A DNA stretch of 58,863 bases, filler included, from Malassezia furfur (lineage: Eukaryota): assembly GCA_052055015.1 (NCBI GenBank). It is 2 parts of 2 records of this genome, joined end to end, with 100 filler letters (N's around TTAATTAATTAA, not from the genome) between each part and the next. Parts side by side here need not be neighbours in the genome. Positions count along the whole stretch, not along the records: positions 1 to 29,389 come from JBQJIT010000104.1; 1 more part is not named here. The stretch is one strand, 5' to 3'. Below, in pieces: positions 6,169 through 16,327 of the stretch (positions within the stretch are counted from its first letter, which is position 1; every line of letters starts with the position of its first letter). Position numbers and translations under genes: made by a program. Under the pieces are notes generated by a model. The model was not told the DNA's origin and did not search any database. It saw nothing but the letters and a program-made list of their open reading frames with translations.

Positions 6169-7317
6169 CTAGATAGCTACAGGCCACACGTGGGTCTCAC
6201 AGTCCCAAGAACTGCTCGCAATCACCCCACGCTCAAACAGAGACCATGCTAGGCCCACAACAAATTCTTTGTGCATCGGGTATACCATCCGCGGCGAGCG
6301 CAAAAGCGGCACCCCGGCTGCGGGGGGTGCGTCGTCCACGTTCCAGATTCGAACGCTCATGTCATAGCCGGCGCTCGCCAGTATTTTTGGCTGGTGGGTG
6401 GACCACGCCAAGCTGCGCACGGCATACTGGTGCCCAACAAGCACTGCACTTTCCGTAAGAGGCGCACTGGGCACACCTCCTGATGCGCCGCTCATCACTC
6501 GACCATCCCAAACCTTGACGGCACGGTCTGTGCTTCCTGTAGCCAGTGTCATAGGTCGGTATTTATTCCAATCGAGTGATAGCACTTCTCCTCCCACCGA
6601 CATTGTGGAAACGGGCCGTGTGTACCCTGCGCCACCTCCTGCACGTAGATCAAAAATAGCTGCAGACCCATCGCCCGATGCCGTTGCCAGTACAGAAGGG
6701 TTATGCGGAGACCATGCGCATTTGTATACGCAATTTCCATGCGCTTGGATGGTTTGGACAGAACGCAGCAAGTCGGGGTTCCACTGGTGGTAAGACGCTC
6801 ATTTGTAGACACGTACCACTTTCACTGTGCCATCCCAACTGCTGCTTGCAAAGAGCTCTTTCTGAATGTTGTTCCAGTCCAGAGAAAAGATTTCGCGTGA
6901 ATGTTCAGCCCAGTTGCGTATGGGATGATCCTGACGGTGTAAGAATGGCATGAGCCTAACGTACATTTAAAGTGATGTCCCATAGCTTGATGCTTCCGTC
7001 GCCGCACGCACTGGCGATCTGATTCTCATGCAATTCGGACCAGGCCACATCGTACATGCCATCTTGGGTATCGAAGCTGAATGTCAGTGGAATAAATAAC
7101 GCACACTTTTGGCGCAGGCGCTGCCATGCTAAAAATGAACAGACGGCCATTGCCCACCAGACCGTACTGTGGTGAGCTAACCAGAGAAGGTACGCACATT
7201 TGCAGCACCAGCAACAGCGAACTTGTCAGGGAAAAACGGAGACCACGCTACGTTGTATCCGGCATAGCCCGCGGTTGGGAATCGCCTCGCAGGGGACGTA
7301 GGTCCTGCCTGTTGCAT
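6169..7317 (-). CDS. PEX7: Peroxisomal PTS2 receptor Pex7 (WD40), spliced
   Basis: GYNVAWSPFFPDKFAVAGAAN|YGLVGNGRL, FDTQDGMYDVAWSELHENQI, GDGSIKLWD, HKEFVVGLAWSLF. Four short introns. Confidence 0.92.
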
Positions 7318-7429
7318 TTCCAGAATGTCGTACAAAGCAAAGTGCGTCCGATCCAACGAGCGCAACCCCGCACACAAATTCATAAGAAATTTAGTATAAA
7401 GAAGGCGATGTTAACATTTCGAAGTTTCA

Positions 7430-7741
7430 TGGTTTCCTAGTGCAGTGGCATAACTACAGAAACTTCGTGCGGCTCGGAAGAGCAAGGATTGGTCATCGCG
7501 TCCACGGTATCGTACCGGGTTCTAATCCTGCGTTTGACAGTTACTAAATTACAGTTTATGATTGGCAGACTGTCTGCGCCTGGAGCGCAATTGAAAGTGC
7601 AAAGTAAGGCAGACTTGATTGTGCTTGGAAACTCGCACGGCGAGATGCGATTGGCTGGACTTGGTCAAGCAGACGTTGTCGAATTGGATCTTCCATTTGA
7701 CTTGCGTCCACGGACTGCACGAAGTGGAAACCAATTTTTTT
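7430..7741 (+). ncRNA. Candidate Pol III structured RNA, probably non-canonical SRP (7SL) RNA
   Basis: TATAAA at 7395-7400, A-box-like TAGTGCAGTGG (7438-7448), B-box-like GGTTCTAATCC (7518-7528), T7 terminator (7735-7741). Nested 5'/3' pairing: TGGTTTCC/GGAAACCA, ACTTCGTGC/GCACGAAGT, GCAAG/CTTGC, GTTTGAC/GTCAAGC. Confidence 0.6.
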
Positions 7742-8128
7742 GGATCCAGAACGAATAACCTACAATTCTATAGGCTGAGGACTGTATGATGCGTGGGTTT
7801 CTCTTTGCAAGATGCGTTTACAAATAGGTTTCATCAACGATCTCAAAAGTTGTCACTTCCGTTCTGCGCCAGGCAAGGCATGGATCGGCACCGCAGTGTA
7901 ATATTATAAATATCTTCTCCTTGCCTACACCCCAGATGCCTGCGTTTTCGCCGGACGGAGTCTGTCCGGTACCTGGTCGCTTGCCGATGCTAAATTTCGC
8001 CTACGGCGCAGTGCGTAGTCGTGCCAAGAACGAATGGCGACGATTCTTCTCATCACGCTTATACATCTGACCAATGGGACCTTTTTCTTCTCCCTTTAGT
8101 AAGAACACCCCTCTTTACGTGATTCTCG

Positions 8129-8337
8129 CACGTTGTTTGTGCTGAGTCATCAGCTATCCCCCGCGAGATTGCGTTCTGAATTTCAGACCACTAACAAGCC
8201 AAATTTGGCACACGTGTAGGGACCCGTCCAATCCCAAACACCAATGTAGTTCATTTTGATATGTACGAAAAAAGTATCCTAGCCTAGTTGACCGTGCGCA
8301 AAATACCAGCGTCCAAATGGTCCAGCTGGCAAACGTG
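8129..8337. promoter_or_regulatory. Putative Pho4-type bHLH sites upstream of the phosphate transporter
   Basis: CACGTT 8129-8134, CACGTG 8211-8216 and AACGTG (CACGTT on the minus strand) 8332-8337 in an unusually long upstream region. Confidence 0.5.
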
Positions 8338-8567
8338 CGCATTTGTCACTAGCCTAATAGGCTGCCATGAAGGTGTGCTAACACGACATTTTTAGACGCA
8401 TCGGCAGATGCAGAGGTCAACTGCAAGGATGAACAGAGTTTGCTCAACTCCGCAGTTTGGCTTGTCCAGCCCCGGAACAAGTACTAATAGGGCCAACCTT
8501 GCCTGTACCGCTCCCCACCGACTCCCCCCTCCTCAAGTCTCCAAGGGTCCACACCGTCCTGGTGAAA

Positions 8568-10664
8568 ATGTCGGGCACCAACGATTTTGCTTCGCAGTAC
8601 ATTCATCATAGCGATGAGCCTCTGGGCTTTCGCCAAGCGCAGGCTGCTGATGCCGGCTATCCTACTACGACGGAGCACATGTCCTCGGAGCCGTCGAACG
8701 GCAACGTCTCTGACTCGACTCGCTACGGTCCCTCGCAGGGTGTTGACGGCCTGAAGGGGAACGAGGCGACGTACGACTCGACCATGTCGCCCGAGGCTGA
8801 GCGTGCCTTCCATGACGTTCTCTTCCCCCCGGACATTTACACCTCGGACGGCACTTACTGGGCTGATCTGCCTTTCCGTGAGAAGATGGCTTTCTGCAAC
8901 AACCAGTCGAACACGGAAGCCCGCCGTGAGCTTGGTGTTATTGGTTCCATGATGAAGAAGGACCCGCTCAGCCCTGTTAAGGCCTACTTCAGTACCTACG
9001 TGCTGAACGGTCTGGGTATGTTTGTCGAGGGTTACACTCTTTTCTCCGTCGGTAACATTAAGCCTCTGCTGCAGAGCACCTGGCCGGCTTGCTGGAAGAA
9101 CCACGTCGAGTGTGAAAAGAACTGGATCTATGCGATTGACTACCTCGAAATTATCGGTATCATCGTCGGTCAGATTCTTGTTGGTGTTGAGGGTGACTGG
9201 GTTGGTCGTCGTTTCGGTATGGTTCAGGACGCGGTTATTATGACACTCGGTTCGGTGATGCTCACGGCCATGTGGGGTGTCAGCCACAACGGTTGGGTTA
9301 TCTGCTATGCATGGTCGCTGTTCATCTACGGTATTGGTGTCGGTGGTGAATACCCCATGACCTCGACGCGTGCGATGGAGGGCTCGGGCGACCGTTACGC
9401 GGCCTCGACGGGTGACCGTATGCACCGTGGTCGCAATGTGCTGCTCGCCTTCCTGATGCAGGGCTGGGGTCAGTTCTTCAACCAGGTCATCCTGATTCTT
9501 CTGCTTCTCGTCTTCCACAACAGTATGCACCCTCCGTTCTCGAAGACGGCTGTGCAGTGGACCTTCCGTGTTTCGTTCGCTTTCATTGCGGTGGTGACGC
9601 TCTTCCTGGTCTACTACCGTTACTACAAGATTTCGTACACGGAGCAGTCGCTTCGTGATGCCAAGGAGCGCCTTAACACGTCTGGTTACGACGCCAAGTC
9701 GCTGAAGCTTGCTATCCAGCACTACTGGGGTCGTCTGTTTGCCTCGTGCTTCGGCTGGTTCGCCAACGACTTCTTCTTCTACGGTAACAAGATCTTCTCG
9801 AACGTGTTCATCAAACTCATCACGGGTAGCGGTGGCAATCTGCAGACCACCTGGCTGTACAACCTGATCAACATTGGTGTCCAGCTTCCCGGTTACTACC
9901 TTGCTGCGATTCTTGTCGATAACAAGATGTACGGCCGCAAGAACATGCAGACGATTGGCTTCCTGTGCACGTTTGCGCTGTTCTGCGGTGCTGAGTTTGG
10001 CTACAACTCCCTCACGACCAAGGGCTCTGGTCACCTCAAGGCGTTCCAGTTCATCTTCTTCTTCTCGTCGTTCTGGAACCAGTTTGGCTACAACTCGACG
10101 ACTTTCCTTGTGGCTGCCGAGATGTTCCCCGCGTCGATTCGTGCCTCGTGCCACGGTTTCAGTGCCGCGTGGGGCAAGCTTGGTGCGCTGTGCCCGACCA
10201 TCATTTACAACTACGTGACGGACAACCACAGCAAGTTCCACATTGTGACTTGGTTCGGTCTTGCTGGTCTGATCACGACCCTTGTTTTCCTTCCGGACAC
10301 GACCGGTCTCGACCTGCGTGAGCAGGAGCGCTACTGGGAGTATGTCATGAACGGCCGTGTGGAGGACTACCACGGTGTGGCCATCCACCCCCGTCACCTG
10401 TCGCTGTACGAGCGAGTGGTGCTGAAGCGCAACCGCTACTACAACCCTGCGCTCGACCGCCAGCAGAAGACCCAGGAGTTCCGCCAGATCTACCACTCGT
10501 CGCTGCAAAACTACGAGAACAACCAGAAGGATCTCACGACGCAGCAGCAGGAGTTCCTCAACAGCGAGTTTGGCACGAAGTACGTCAAGGACATCTACAA
10601 GCCTCGCGACAACGAGAACCAGATCTATGCCTCCAAGCTGGAATCAGTGGAAAAGAACCTCTAA
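8568..10664 (+). CDS. MFS phosphate:H+ symporter family transporter (Pho84/Git1-like)
   Basis: Intronless ORF with a 12-TM pattern and motifs GDWVGRR, GIGVGGEYPMTS, MQGWGQ, NSTTFLVAAEMFPASIRASCHGFSAAWGKLGA. Strong GGT/CGT codon bias. Confidence 0.85.
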   Translation: MSGTNDFASQYIHHSDEPLGFRQAQAADAGYPTTTEHMSSEPSNGNVSDSTRYGPSQGVDGLKGNEATYDSTMSPEAERAFHDVLFPPDIYTSDGTYWADLPFREKMAFCNNQSNTEARRELGVIGSMMKKDPLSPVKAYFSTYVLNGLGMFVEGYTLFSVGNIKPLLQSTWPACWKNHVECEKNWIYAIDYLEIIGIIVGQILVGVEGDWVGRRFGMVQDAVIMTLGSVMLTAMWGVSHNGWVICYAWSLFIYGIGVGGEYPMTSTRAMEGSGDRYAASTGDRMHRGRNVLLAFLMQGWGQFFNQVILILLLLVFHNSMHPPFSKTAVQWTFRVSFAFIAVVTLFLVYYRYYKISYTEQSLRDAKERLNTSGYDAKSLKLAIQHYWGRLFASCFGWFANDFFFYGNKIFSNVFIKLITGSGGNLQTTWLYNLINIGVQLPGYYLAAILVDNKMYGRKNMQTIGFLCTFALFCGAEFGYNSLTTKGSGHLKAFQFIFFFSSFWNQFGYNSTTFLVAAEMFPASIRASCHGFSAAWGKLGALCPTIIYNYVTDNHSKFHIVTWFGLAGLITTLVFLPDTTGLDLREQERYWEYVMNGRVEDYHGVAIHPRHLSLYERVVLKRNRYYNPALDRQQKTQEFRQIYHSSLQNYENNQKDLTTQQQEFLNSEFGTKYVKDIYKPRDNENQIYASKLESVEKNL

Positions 10665-11013: not shown

Positions 11014-12147
11014 ATGCGCTTCACTTCCGCATTGATGAACGTCGGACGCGCTGTGCGTATCGGCATGATCCCGGCGGATGGGATTGGCCGTGAGGTACTC
11101 CCCGTCGCCGAGCGCGTGATGACCGCTGCGCCAGGTGCACCCAAGTTCGAGTTTGTGCATCTCGACGCGGGCTTCGAGCTGTTCCAAGTGACCGGCACGT
11201 CGCTGCCACAGGAGACGATTGACACGCTCAAGAACTCGTGTGATGGTGCCTTGTTTGGTAGTGTCTCGTCCCCGTCGCACAAAGTTGAGGGCTACTCGAG
11301 CCCGATCGTGCGCCTGCGTAAGGAGCTCAACTTGTATGCCAACATCCGCCCGGTGAGTGGCCCCGTGGTCACGGATCTGCCGGCCCAGTACCAGAAGCAT
11401 GTGGACATGGTGACGATCCGTGAGAACACCGAGTGTCTCTACATCAAGCAGGAGACACAGGAGGACTCGCCGAACGGCAAAATCGCCCGTGCAACGCGCC
11501 AAATTACGGAGCATGCCTCAACCCGCATCGGACGCAAGGCGTTCGAGGTGGCGCTGGTGCGCAAGGCGATGCGCGAGCAGGAGGGCAAAAAGACGCCGAC
11601 CAAGGTCACCATCTGCCACAAGTCCAATGTGCTGTCGGTGACCGACGGCCTCTTCCGTACGTCGGTGCGCAGCGTGTTCGAGGCGGACGAGAAGAAGAAT
11701 GGCGGCCCCGGTCGCTACGAGGGTATTGAGCTCGACGAACAGCTGGTGGACTCGATGGTGTACCGTATGTACCGCGAGCCGAACGTGTTTGACGTGATCG
11801 TCGCGCCGAATCTGTATGGCGATATTATTAGCGACGGCGCTGCGGCGCTCGTCGGCTCGCTGGGCCTGGTGGCCAGTGTGAACGCGAGCGACACCTTCTT
11901 TATGGGTGAGCCTGTGCATGGCTCGGCACCTGACATTGTCGGCGAGAACCGCGCGAACCCGATTGCTGCGATCCGCTCGGCGGCGTTGATGCTCGAGTAC
12001 ATGGGCTACACCGACCCGGCGATGGCCATGTACAAGGCGGTGGACCGTGTGCTGCTCCAGGGCAAGACGCTGACTCCCGATCTGCCTGGCGGCAAGGCGA
12101 CTACGGCCGAGGTCGAGGAAGCAGTGTTGCGCGAACTGCTTAGGTAG
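11014..12147 (+). CDS. LYS12: Homoisocitrate dehydrogenase (mitochondrial)
   Basis: IGMIPADGIGREV, GALFGSVSSPSHKVEGYSSPIVRLRK, HKSNVLSVTDGLF, NLYGDIISD, GEPVHGSAPDI. Confidence 0.9.
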   Translation: MRFTSALMNVGRAVRIGMIPADGIGREVLPVAERVMTAAPGAPKFEFVHLDAGFELFQVTGTSLPQETIDTLKNSCDGALFGSVSSPSHKVEGYSSPIVRLRKELNLYANIRPVSGPVVTDLPAQYQKHVDMVTIRENTECLYIKQETQEDSPNGKIARATRQITEHASTRIGRKAFEVALVRKAMREQEGKKTPTKVTICHKSNVLSVTDGLFRTSVRSVFEADEKKNGGPGRYEGIELDEQLVDSMVYRMYREPNVFDVIVAPNLYGDIISDGAAALVGSLGLVASVNASDTFFMGEPVHGSAPDIVGENRANPIAAIRSAALMLEYMGYTDPAMAMYKAVDRVLLQGKTLTPDLPGGKATTAEVEEAVLRELLR

Positions 12148-14005
12148 ATTCGATGGTACAAGACACTTGCGATCGCGCGTCACGCTTGGCACGCTCAATC
12201 TTCGCACGGACGTGACGCAATCCAAAGGAGTGTGGATCGTTACACAAACGCAGCCAGGGCTGCCCACCCACCTCGGTACGCTCCAGCCAGCCCGGCGCGA
12301 TCGACATGAGCATGGCGACCGACGCTTCGCTTTCGGCACGGCTTAGGGCGACCTTTGCCGAATTTTCCAACGAGACCAGCACGTCGAGCAACGGTAGCAC
12401 ACGTGATGTCCGTCCATGGCGCGACTGTGCCGGCACGTTGGATGAGACAAAAAGAAGGTAGATGGCCTCTGCCATCTCACTCAGGCGCGACAGCATCGAG
12501 CGCTCATGCAGTGTTGGCGCCGCAGATTTCGGTCGGTGGCCGTGCCGTGCCGCATGCGTCGCCTGTTCCTTAGCCCGGATGCGCTCCTCGAGCGACATCT
12601 TGATCGTCGTCTGTGGCGTAGGCACTGGTTCAGGTGCGCGGACCTCGCGCGACACAATTGGTGCGGCCGGTACAGCGACACGCAGCGTTGGCAGCTTGGC
12701 TTCGACCATGGGCGGCACCGAGTCCAAGGCAAAATCGGGATGCCACGCCGTCAAGCTGAGCGCTTTGGGCTTGCGCTGTGCACTCCGCGGTGGCGTCGTC
12801 GGCAGTTCGCGAGCGCCGCGGCCTGCAAGAGGCGAGGTAGGCGGTGAGGCCGGCGGCTCGTGCCGAATGCGCTGCGCATGCGTCCCGCCCGATCGCGTCG
12901 CTGTGGGCGTAAGGAGGCCATTGGATGTGCAATAGCCTGTAGGAAGCTTGGGCGTACTCGGCGTGTCCACGGGGGGTGGCGGGGTATCATCCGAAGGCGG
13001 CTGTTGCGCAAGCCATCGGTCGTGCGACATGGCGACGAAATGACACAGGCGACGGTGAAATTCAGCGCGCCGCTCGTCAACGCCGTTGTTCCACATCGCA
13101 AGGTAGCTCATCTCTTCACGGGACGAGGGCGATGCGGGTGGACGTAGGCGGTTTGGCGACCGCCGCCGCGGGCTTGCCGTATTGCCTGGCGACCCAAACG
13201 TCACGGTTGGCGAAACGATAGTTTTGGGCTCATAGAGCTGCATCTCAATCCCAATGCCGTAGTCATAGATGCGCTTGTGAGTGTGTGAGTCGATGGTGCG
13301 GGCACGAGATACAACAAAGCCCATGCCGCCCACCTCCATGGGCATCGGCGCCGGCGACGAAGGAAGTTGGGTATCGGATCCCGGCGCATGCGACCATACC
13401 CACACGAGCCGCTTAAAGTCGGCCATTGTGAATGTGCGCCGCAATGTACGCTCCACCATGGGCCGCAAAGTATGAAAGTGGATCACGTTGGCGATTCGCA
13501 GGCATCGAGCCAGGCCATCGTCGTGTGACTCGGCGGCCGGGGCCCCCGACGTCGCCATGTGCACAAGAATGCTCTGCTCCACCGCAACGTGCGCATCAAG
13601 CAAGAACTGCAAATGGTTTGGGAGTGGGAGTGCATCGTCAAATGTGTAGTGCATCTTGCTGCGCATCTCCTGCGCAATGAAGCGCTCGCGGTCCAGTTCT
13701 TCCTCAGAGTGGAATTTGGGCAGGCTCGTTTTCCGCGGCGATGCCCGCTCCACGAGCCGCGCCGTACTTCCGCCTAGTTCGAGTTTTACCGGCGGCCCTA
13801 GGGAGTCGGTGAGTGAAACGGCACGCCGCTTGGCATGGCTGCGTGAGTCGTCGTGCACGTACGATTCGCGTACCGACTTAGGCGTGAGGAAGAGCTCCTC
13901 GTCGCTGTCTTCGCGCCTATGATCCAGCGGGCCACTATCGTCGTCCAACGTAGGGTTGACTCTCGTCCCTGCGTCGCGGCCCGCTAGCAGCGCCCACTCG
14001 GACAT
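12140..14005 (-). CDS. CDT1: DNA replication licensing factor Cdt1-like
   Basis: C-terminal SLEERIRAKE...RSMLSRLSEMAEAIYLLF...SRAESEASVAMLMSIAPGWL winged-helix region, AWHPDFALDSVP motif and many S/T-P sites. Confidence 0.72.
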   Translation of the reverse strand: MSEWALLAGRDAGTRVNPTLDDDSGPLDHRREDSDEELFLTPKSVRESYVHDDSRSHAKRRAVSLTDSLGPPVKLELGGSTARLVERASPRKTSLPKFHSEEELDRERFIAQEMRSKMHYTFDDALPLPNHLQFLLDAHVAVEQSILVHMATSGAPAAESHDDGLARCLRIANVIHFHTLRPMVERTLRRTFTMADFKRLVWVWSHAPGSDTQLPSSPAPMPMEVGGMGFVVSRARTIDSHTHKRIYDYGIGIEMQLYEPKTIVSPTVTFGSPGNTASPRRRSPNRLRPPASPSSREEMSYLAMWNNGVDERRAEFHRRLCHFVAMSHDRWLAQQPPSDDTPPPPVDTPSTPKLPTGYCTSNGLLTPTATRSGGTHAQRIRHEPPASPPTSPLAGRGARELPTTPPRSAQRKPKALSLTAWHPDFALDSVPPMVEAKLPTLRVAVPAAPIVSREVRAPEPVPTPQTTIKMSLEERIRAKEQATHAARHGHRPKSAAPTLHERSMLSRLSEMAEAIYLLFVSSNVPAQSRHGRTSRVLPLLDVLVSLENSAKVALSRAESEASVAMLMSIAPGWLERTEVGGQPWLRLCNDPHSFGLRHVRAKIERAKRDARSQVSCTIEST

Positions 14006-14083
14006 CGTGGTCGCAACCGCACGGTCGGCTCCGTCGAGCTGCAGGGATGCGCCGCGTAAATGAGCGTGCATCGGCCGAGAGGA

Positions 14084-16327
14084 TCAGGGGTCGTCCAGCG
14101 GCAGAGACAGCGCGGCTCTGGGTGAGTCGGGGCACACACCTCCACTGCATGGCACTCGCCGCGCTCGGGGCGCTCAGCAGGCACGCCGTGTTGTTCGTGT
14201 ACAGGCCGAGCACGTGTTTTTGTGGGTCGTCCACCATGGCAGGATATACGTGTACGCCACACAGATAGATATTCAATATCACATCGCGACTTCCCGGTTG
14301 GCAGCGTGCAATCAGAAAAGGGCTGCATTAGCATGGTTTCGTACGGGCGCAGTTCGAACCAGGCGTGCAGCCAGGAGTTGGACAATGCATCGCGCTGGAT
14401 ATCAAGCCATCCTTCGACCGTGCAGCGGTCCATCGTGACCAGCTGCGATTCGGCGGTGTAGGTGAATGTGCCGGCATTCTCGAGCACACATGTCCAATGC
14501 GCACGAAGCTGTGTAAGCCGGCCCACCTACCATAGCATACGCGCTTGTCCGTTTCTGCCAATACGCCACGAGCGGGCGCAGATCGTTGCATGTTGCGGGC
14601 GGCAGTGTCAAGTGTAAAAGCCGCTCACGGGTCCGGCACACGTTCACTGCGTGCATATCTCTCCGCCATGCCGCCATGTAATCAGCGATCAAAGTCAGGC
14701 CTCGCGGCATGGGTGTCGTGCCTGTATCGCCAGGCACCTGCACTGTCCGCGTATCCACGCGCCACAAGTCTTTTGCACTGACAATGCGCCCAGGAGACAG
14801 CGATATGCTGAAAAATGCATGGTGTGCGTCGCGCGGAAGGCGCTGAACCTTGTCCCAGAGCACGTCTTCGACGTCGGGTGCCTTTTTCCTAGGTGCAGGC
14901 GCATCCTGGATGCGGAAATGGACGGGTATCGAGAGGACCAGGGGCTGAGAGTCTTTGATATGCACTTCGACATGCAGGAGGAGTCGGATGCTGTGTCGCG
15001 GAGGGGTCGTCTGCTGCAGGAGATCTTGTGTCGGCCGCCACAGCGCATGAACCTCGGTGTTTTGCGATTGAGCGCAGCGCTGGAGGGTGCAGTAGCCCGG
15101 TTCGGACCTGACTACGGTCCCCAGTCCGTCGTAGAGTTGCACGTCCCCGACTTGCACGCGCCGGATTCCTTGCCAAGGCAGTTCCGCATTCGAGTCGGAG
15201 TCGAGGGAAACGACAAGGCACTTGGTGCTCGTGTTGTCAATGAGGAAGTAGGGTGTGCGTGCCGGTGAGGGCTTTACAACTAGCGGTAGGCCATTACGGT
15301 TCAGGCTGAGCATGTGGACCTCAGCGCGAATGCCGTGGACCGAGCGCAACCGACGTTTCCGCTCGTGGATGCGTGCCTGGCTTGAGGGGGGCGTAACGCC
15401 CAAGATGGACACCAAGTCCTTGCTTGGCTGCCGAAATTGTGACTCTTTTTCCTCGTCTGTTGCGGCCATACGGTCAAGAAAGGCGGTCGTTGGGTATGCG
15501 AATATATGGATGGCGGCCGAGCCATATTGCCAGTGTGCACGCGCATGGTCAGTTTGTGGCACACGAAAGGTCGTTTGCATGCGTACGTTGGAGCATGGCT
15601 GAGCCTCCAAGAGAATGGGACGTGTCGCATATGTCTCTGCATTCGAATCGTACGTTCCCGTCAGTGAATCCAGACGCAACTGCAGGTGCAGCTCACTGAC
15701 GTCATCCACTGTGAGACCCGTCAGCTCATCCAAGGTGACCCTGCATACAACGCCGCCTTCGTATGGGCACACATAGGCAATACCCACGCGGCAGTGGCCC
15801 TGGACGCTGAAATCCAATGACTGGATCGGCATGTGCCACATTCGCTGTGTTTGCTCTGCCAAGGGGAAAAGTGGCAAACGCACAGATCCGATGTGCGAAA
15901 ACCGCGTTGCATCGTCGCCGAACAGCTGGGCATAGATATCGGTGTGGTGGGCCACGGATGGCCCGAGTTTGCCGGACCACAGTTTATGCAAAGCGCTTAC
16001 TTGCTCCGTAAGCTTGTCTGCGTCCCAGTACAGTATACGGCGAGCTTTGCGGTGGATCACACGAACAAGTGTCTTAGGAACCATTCCAAAGTAGGGGTCG
16101 CCGTGTGACTCGCCTGCCACGCCCCCATGCACCGAGCTCGCAACGTTGCAAGGAAAGGGGCGCTGAATCGCACTTTGAAACTCGACCTGGACCTCCAACA
16201 AATTGCTCAGCACATTTGCCTCGCGCACCAGAGCCGCATTGGCCAGCACGGTCTCGGCGGCGCCTAGCAAGGTTATGTCTGCCCACGCCCGCGTCCAGAT
16301 ACGCGCATCGCGTCGTCCCAAGGCCAT
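14084..16327 (-). CDS. Kinesin-3 (Unc104/KIF1) tail-like protein with C-terminal PH domain and no motor domain, spliced
   Basis: AETVLANAALVREANVLS...QVEFQ and LVRVIH...LYWDADKL stalk motifs. After three 22-nt introns (first at 14509-14530), a PH domain (VEGWLDIQRDALSNSWLHAWFELRPPFL...VLGLYTNNTACLLSAPSAASAMQW). Stop TGA at 14084-14086. Confidence 0.65.

Follow-up and report, generated by a model that had tools for sequence, protein, structure and literature searches.

Results

Gene neighbourhood of the locus

The window, that is, the whole 58,863-nt stretch of Malassezia furfur DNA that was analysed, contains a candidate RNA locus between two divergent genes, PEX7 on the minus strand and a Sugar_tr/MFS transporter on the plus strand (from ~8457), as the original prediction had placed it (Table 1). 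The two genes are separated by a spacer of ~1100 nt, a divergent promoter region of 1.1 kb. The closest named relative of PEX7 was that of Malassezia yamatoensis, with 72% identity across the 200-aa exon in a search limited to proteins of at least 351 aa, and ORFs elsewhere in the window fall into 90%-identity clusters together with proteins assigned to Malassezia furfur and M. brasiliensis, which places the window in the M. furfur group. PEX7 (minus strand) has its first in-frame ATG at 7383, only 12 nt from the TATAAA element of the candidate RNA gene; therefore, the PEX7 promoter must overlap this gene.

The PEX7 gene (6172-7383, minus strand) apparently consists of at least four exons separated by very short introns. 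One in-frame stop falls within 6772-6933, which tblastn aligned as one piece, and probably reflects a further small intron. Two ORFs elsewhere in the window (12143-14071 and 14405-16327) share a protein cluster and were considered as a tandem duplicate; this was rejected because their sequences are unrelated, and they are probably linked in the cluster only via a long annotated protein spanning both.

Table 1. Features of the PEX7-transporter spacer and of the candidate RNA gene (positions in the window)
Feature	Position	Strand	Remarks
PEX7 exons	6172-6933, 6965-7093, 7110-7187, 7198-7287	-	
TATAAA, candidate upstream Pol III TATA element	7395-7400	+	~30 nt before the predicted RNA 5' end, 30-35 nt before the terminal helix; may alternatively serve the divergent PEX7
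Predicted primary transcript, ~305-310 nt	7429-7738	+	5' end placed by distance from the TATA element, 3' end by the T run
Terminal helix, 5' strand	7430-7437	+	8-bp pairing with 7726-7733, mean p 0.97; 7431-7437/7726-7732 form a 7-bp acceptor-like stem
A-box-like TAGTGCAGTGG	7438-7448	+	directly after the 7-bp stem, as in tRNA genes
Second rod helix, 5' strand	7462-7476	+	pairs with 7711-7725; 11-bp part 7462-7472/7715-7725 p 0.98, 3-bp part p 0.73
Third rod helix, 5' strand	7480-7501	+	pairs with 7645-7666; segment p 0.80-0.94
Head hairpin	7502-7519	+	one of four in the ensemble head
B box GGTTCTAATCC	7518-7528	+	within a T-arm-like element, 7516-7530 (4-bp stem, 7-nt loop UUCUAAU)
Head hairpin B1	7526-7584	+	core helices p 0.97
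Head hairpin B2	7585-7624	+	10-bp stem, 3x3 internal loop AAG/GAC, 3-bp stem, 8-nt loop; p 0.96-0.98
Small hairpin CUCGC-ACG-GCGAG	7632-7644	+	p 0.80; GGAAAC adjoins
Side hairpin on the rod 3' strand	7672-7708	+	p 0.91-0.99
3' strands of rod helices 2 and 1, contiguous	7711-7733	+	followed by unpaired A7734
T7 run, candidate Pol III terminator	7735-7741	+	one A after helix strand 7726-7733

The locus carries candidate promoter boxes and a candidate terminator of a type 2 Pol III gene

The upstream TATAAA, the A-box-like 11-mer, the B-box-like element and the T7 run behind the 8-bp terminal helix, all of which had been pointed out in the original prediction, are present. The A box TAGTGCAGTGG shares 10 of its 11 positions with TRGCNNAGTGG, the consensus of tRNA A boxes, and the B box GGTTCTAATCC agrees equally well (10/11) with the B-box consensus GGTTCGANNCC. 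The order of A box, B box and T-run terminator is that of a Pol III type 2 gene, the two boxes are 80 bp apart, and no T run longer than three occurs inside the RNA body. The combined pattern TATAAA-N25-45-TRGYNNANNGG-N50-80-GGTTCNANNCC, which was composed post hoc, matched once on the two strands of the 58.9-kb window and in none of 100 shuffles; of the separate elements, the B-box pattern was found at 3 sites, the A-box pattern at 20 and runs of at least six T at 17 on both strands. The A box had also been likened to the fungal SRP Alu motif, and this held in part: UGCAGUGGC matches UGUAAUGGC at 7 of 9 positions, but the UGU of UGUNR is missing. When genome contigs were scanned for the pattern of A-box and B-box words, 7 loci came up; they are all bacterial and alike only at the pattern, and were set aside as chance matches.

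The arrangement of these elements resembles a tRNA gene. The 7-bp stem is followed by U-A and then by the A box at its tRNA position, which in our own reading corresponds to U8 A9 G10 ... A14 G15 U16 G18 G19 of tRNA numbering, and behind the 3' strand comes an unpaired A. In terms of a tRNA gene, A7733 would take the place of the discriminator base, with the T run behind it. Thus, the locus shares with tRNA genes a 7-bp terminal stem plus one unpaired base, the position of the A box, the placement of the B box within a hairpin resembling a T arm, and a T run close behind the 3' strand. Unlike the cloverleaf of a tRNA, however, it has ~195 nt between the T-arm-like element and the 3' stem strand. 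ARAGORN reported no tRNA gene in the window and none in 4 of 5 settings on 7380-7760, where the sole match (80% threshold) extends beyond the T run, and the Rfam tRNA model had no match on 7300-7850. Given that no tRNA passes the normal thresholds of ARAGORN, what suggests a tRNA ancestry is no more than a resemblance. Moreover, the T-arm-like hairpin has a p of 0.03 in the RNA ensemble, which makes the B box likelier to be a DNA promoter element than an RNA fold. Both boxes have the appearance of promoter elements in the DNA, like those of type 2 genes for RNAs other than tRNA.

The putative RNA is predicted to fold into a rod with a four-hairpin head

On the plus strand, 7425-7741 had an MFE of -114.5 kcal/mol, compared with an average of -92.5 for shuffles (z -4.30), and none of 100 shuffles folded as well; the minus strand of the same stretch gave -89.8 kcal/mol (z -3.24). 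A sliding fold scan (18 windows over 7000-8574, 20 mononucleotide shuffles per window) had its lowest z on either strand, -5.0, at 7450-7749 on the plus strand. The predicted fold comprises 110 pairs in 306 nt (52 G-C, 41 A-U and 17 G-U), so that 72% of the nucleotides are paired, and its hairpin loops are AGUG, UCG, CAGUUUA, AAAGUAAG, ACG and UCU.

Four long-range helices had been proposed for this RNA. Two of them were recovered in the ensemble, namely 7430-7437/7726-7733 (p 0.97) and 7462-7470/7717-7725 (p 0.98, within an 11-bp helix), whereas 7482-7486/7701-7705 and 7532-7538/7664-7670 are complementary on paper but have an ensemble p of ~0.00 and are replaced by 7483-7486/7660-7663, 7489-7501/7645-7658 and local hairpins. 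The proposed rod with a multi-hairpin head was borne out, with four hairpins in the ensemble head (7502-7519, 7526-7584, 7585-7624 and 7632-7644). The last of these is the predicted CTCGC-ACG-GCGAG stem-loop beside GGAAAC; the GAAA loops also expected in the head were not seen, GAAA never being a hairpin loop in the predicted fold.

A perfect 9-nt inverted repeat, CGAAGTTTC / GAAACTTCG (7420-7428 / 7459-7467), brackets the A-box region and is in competition with helix 7462-7472/7715-7725 of the rod. The modelled RNA could switch between two folds, provided that its transcription begins at 7420 or further upstream. In addition, two exact direct repeats were noted inside the RNA, GCGTCCACGG (7498-7507 and 7704-7713) and GGCAGACT (7564-7571 and 7608-7615), as well as three to four GATTGG-like words. 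Such repeats may offer several sites for protein binding or may be left over from a duplication within the sequence.

The translated part of the candidate RNA body is unchanged in a variant contig

The plus-strand frame 7441-7758 is open by accident and was used as a handle on protein collections. Two proteins correspond to it: P0121 (66 aa, 4 contigs), which is identical to the window ORF, and P0122 (100 aa, from a single contig of 975 nt), which falls in the same cluster. An all-against-all search of representatives with the plus frame returned only these two. P0122 equals the window translation at 83 of 83 positions (7492-7740), a comparison in translation only, to which synonymous changes are invisible. 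Past 7740 it switches to the other frame of the window with three F residues, indicating T9 instead of T7 in a second lineage, and after the T run it differs at 3 of 16 residues. For the neighbouring protein ORFs, some cluster mates show 95.5-97.5% identity and others 99.5-100%; the former indicate that a diverged lineage is present in the protein collection. These comparisons suggest that the RNA body is constrained while its 3' flank is free to vary, judged from the translation of one variant contig that may come from the diverged lineage.

The element is absent from the same spacer in other Malassezia-like lineages

A metagenome scan with a PEX7 exon yielded 24 loci (234,434 nt). In 9 of them (L008-L015 and L029) PEX7 is 63-64% identical, and in five (L008, L009, L013, L014 and L015, representing about three lineages) the transporter lies in the same divergent arrangement. 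The spacer of these five syntenic loci measures ~570-650 nt, compared with ~1100 nt here. When the RNA was compared with all 24 loci, blastn gave nothing longer than 26 nt or better than E 1.4 and nhmmer nothing at E<=10, and Rfam had no match on the 5 metagenome loci to which it was applied. The syntenic spacers contain no comparably structured stretch, the lowest z being -2.9 (21 windows, both strands). With neither similarity nor a strong fold in the five syntenic spacers, the element appears to be absent from this site in about three other Malassezia-like lineages, and the spacer comparison provided no covariation. Accidental ORFs likewise revealed no diverged homologue: the plus frame found its own cluster only, and the minus frame found nothing.

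In the L013 spacer (2021-2611) and the same region of L014 and L015 (minus strand of the loci), two T runs of T6-T7 and T10-T11 occur in the plus orientation of the window. The T6-T7 run is interrupted in L014, and these three spacers have no A or B boxes, no strong fold and no Rfam match. The runs are probably poly(dT) promoter elements.

The hallmarks of SRP RNA are missing from the predicted RNA

The original prediction had labelled the locus a candidate SRP RNA. On this reading, the lineage studied here would have a non-canonical SRP (7SL) RNA of basidiomycete type, in which helix 5 corresponds to the rod, helices 6 and 8 lie in the head, and the one helix inserted into helix 8 is hairpin 7632-7644. 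This assignment agrees with the size, the rod shape and the layout of the Pol III gene, and with the strong conservation of the body between two lineages; in addition, AAGCAG at 7667-7672 resembles the 3' strand of the helix-8 symmetric loop.

Basidiomycete SRP RNAs were studied by Dumesic et al. 2015 (PMC4605306), the available text of which describes 152 of them and states, as the original prediction did and in favour of the SRP assignment, that standard models miss them. The same text gives UGUNR as universal in fungal Alu domains and depicts helix 8 as a symmetric loop with an invariant A-C pair and an adjacent 5' G, followed by a short apical stem whose loop carries A in position 4; the A-C pair is kept in all 152, and the adjacent G is altered only in four named species, among which no Malassezia appears. 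Non-canonical SRP RNAs are reported there for M. globosa and M. sympodialis, and Malassezia species are listed as having a single helix inserted into helix 8. An SRP RNA of non-canonical form has thus already been published for Malassezia (PMC4605306).

The SRP label was not supported by the tests for these features. The window has no Rfam match of any kind at gathering score, and at E<=10 only 2 junk matches were obtained on 7300-7850 and 1 on 7560-7700, none of them SRP, RNase P, MRP or tRNA; the SRP families of Rfam 15 are silent at this level on both stretches (551 and 141 bases). UGUNR is absent from the 5' domain, which has UGCAG instead, and matches only at 7409, before the RNA, and at 7677, inside the 3' hairpin. 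A loose helix-8 descriptor (A-G, 3-5-nt loop strands, apical stem, loop, C opposite and flanking stem) gave 1 weak match with a 2-bp stem and a 9-nt loop, below the mean of 4.5 in 300 shuffles, in agreement with the failure of the original prediction to find the canonical helix-8 loop. The sole symmetric loop with A opposite C, AAG/GAC at 7595-97/7612-14, has A instead of G beside the A and an 8-nt apical loop. The position facing the C of the AGCA word (7668-7671) holds U or C, not A. A 13-nt hairpin does lie at 7632-7644 (p 0.80), with no definable helix 8 around it. No GNRA or GNAR hairpin loop occurs in the predicted ensemble fold, including the GNAR loop (A at third position) of helix 6. 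Three C. neoformans SRP RNA oligos taken from Table S3 of PMC4605306, a weak test, showed similarity not above shuffles.

As described in the available text of PMC4605306, basidiomycete SRP RNAs thus share with our locus a basidiomycete yeast host, escape from Rfam, a long rod and a multi-hairpin head, with a small extra hairpin near an AGCA word here. They differ in that the 5' domain here has no UGUNR, no symmetric loop with A-C plus G lies beside a short apical stem, GNRA and GNAR loops are lacking and the termini pair with each other; Malassezia SRP RNAs enter this comparison by description only.

Discussion

We tentatively propose, with a probability of roughly 45%, that a genuine and conserved Pol III gene lies at this locus and encodes a rod RNA of ~305 nt whose ends are tRNA-like, which occurs only in the furfur group, at least at this site, and falls outside the recognisable RNA families. 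In our reading, it is none of the canonical SRP, RNase P and MRP RNAs. At the level of sequence, the unannotated ~310-nt Pol III-type rod RNA of the original prediction agrees with all tests, namely the boxes, the terminator, the strand-specific fold and the conservation of the body relative to the 3' flank, and a new Pol III RNA, offered there as a fallback, is now the better reading than SRP RNA.

According to our model, RNA polymerase III would transcribe the gene from a tRNA-type (type 2) promoter, with TFIIIC on the A and B boxes (7438-7448 and 7518-7528) and TFIIIB over TATAAA at about -30. Transcription would start near 7429 and stop in the T7 run, and the ~305-nt RNA would adopt the shape of a long rod, in which three helices stack, two hairpins branch off sideways and four hairpins make up the head. 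With a 7-bp acceptor-like stem and one unpaired A, its ends may resemble pre-tRNA to La and tRNA end-processing enzymes, which would stabilise the RNA. Such an RNA would be restricted to the Malassezia furfur group, depend on a tRNA-gene promoter and act as a protein-binding scaffold.

Several observations weigh against the Pol III RNA gene. Its conservation comes from one variant contig, as translation; there is no covariation, and five syntenic loci are without the element. TATAAA, 12 nt from the PEX7 ATG, could be a PEX7 promoter element. The T-arm-like hairpin has a p of just 0.03, and ARAGORN finds no tRNA at normal thresholds. Furthermore, a fungal Pol III rod of ~300 nt is a priori most often an SRP RNA. 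Because of this prior, SRP RNA stays in consideration, although we regard it as unlikely. The S. cerevisiae SCR1 (7SL) gene reportedly has a TATA box and internal A and B blocks spanning ~80 bp. This layout speaks for SRP RNA, and SCR1 and our candidate have in common a non-tRNA Pol III gene with an upstream TATA, internal A/B blocks spanning ~80 bp and a T-run terminator. However, SCR1 has canonical SRP motifs and an A block that overlaps the UGUAAUGG Alu motif, whereas here the A box comes after an acceptor-like stem. To our knowledge, fungal SRP RNAs do not pair their 5' and 3' ends in such a stem. Together with this pairing, the silence of the Rfam SRP models, the missing UGUNR, the helix-8 matches below the shuffle mean, the wrong neighbour of the only A-opposite-C loop, the U or C facing AGC at 7668-7670, the lack of GNRA and GNAR loops and, as a weak test, the C. 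neoformans oligos all argue against SRP RNA. The SCR1 RNA is 522 nt long according to the available text of PMC7901838.

It is more doubtful still that the locus is non-functional, being either what is left of a decayed tRNA gene or a site bound by TFIIIC, in a promoter region with an inverted repeat, so that any transcript would be a by-product. Orphan TFIIIC sites and tRNA relics exist in S. cerevisiae, and the element is missing from the syntenic spacer in 5 of 5 other Malassezia-like loci that keep both flanking genes. A TATA element belonging to PEX7 would also suit a relic, and the minus strand, too, folds better than shuffles (z -3.24), as expected of an inverted repeat at the DNA level; yet the fold is much stronger on the plus strand (-114.5 versus -89.8), where it includes 17 G-U pairs, and pairing of 72% of 306 nt goes far beyond promoter needs. 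A relic would further have to accommodate a body unchanged at 83/83 translated positions next to a 3' flank that differs at 3/16 in the same contig, a T run retained and lengthened in the P0122 contig, and a body with no internal run of T4 or longer.

The folded domain might also belong to a Pol II transcript, for instance a long 5' UTR of the transporter gene, a transcript from upstream of that gene, or an antisense of the PEX7 promoter. The locus does lie within a 1.1-kb divergent promoter region, and TATAAA suits a Pol II promoter as well, but we consider this origin quite improbable: it leaves unexplained why an A box, a B box and a T7 run should be arranged as in a tRNA gene and line up with the folded domain, and ~715 nt of unstructured sequence separates the element from the transporter ORF. 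Hardly any weight goes to a divergent RNase P or RNase MRP RNA, for which the pairing of the 5' and 3' ends as in P1, the A and B boxes of the S. cerevisiae RPR1 gene and GGAAACUC at 7627, which we take to resemble the start of CR-I, could be cited, since no Rfam RNase P or MRP model matches at E<=10, the full CR-I and CR-V patterns (P4 strands) are absent at the locus, the CR-I-like word lies ~200 nt from the 5' end and is paired locally in hairpin 7632-7644, and a rod with 19 stacked terminal pairs is not the architecture of these RNAs.

Two further identities were rejected: a snoRNA or snRNA, since the locus has no C/D or H/ACA boxes and no Sm site, and a MITE or foldback transposon, since the terminal inverted repeat is just 8 bp, with no target-site duplication and no second copy in the window.

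Lineage-restricted Pol III RNAs with tRNA-like A/B boxes are known from other organisms, including RNA170 and ZOD1 of yeast and the metazoan vault RNAs, all ~90-170 nt long. Our candidate Pol III RNA resembles them in both respects, and vault RNAs also pair both ends; however, we know of none among these that is a 305-nt rod with a four-hairpin head. Very few fungal Pol III RNAs are known to us beyond tRNAs, 5S, U6, SRP, RNase P and MRP. We consider it possible, albeit with less than even confidence, that the locus represents a class of fungal Pol III RNAs not described before: a conserved rod of ~305 nt, with termini that mimic an acceptor stem and might thereby enter the tRNA end-processing/La pathway, restricted to the furfur group and serving there as an RNP scaffold; an SRP RNA minus the universal helix-8 and UGUNR motifs would be equally unusual. 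Our literature search found no paper on a Malassezia Pol III RNA and none on Malassezia SRP RNA beyond Dumesic et al. 2015, and no Pol III RNA outside the standard families was found described for this dominant human skin yeast. If the locus is expressed, its product may be either a novel structured RNA peculiar to this lineage, with ends like those of a tRNA, or an SRP RNA in which supposedly universal motifs are broken. If a normal SRP RNA is encoded elsewhere and the locus is silent, it would be a tRNA-gene relic of little importance.

A second folding stretch was noted on the minus strand of the same spacer. At 8050-8424, directly upstream of the transporter ORF, the sliding fold scan (20 mononucleotide shuffles) gave z values of -3.1 and -3.2, and a T6 run lies at 8273 on the minus strand.
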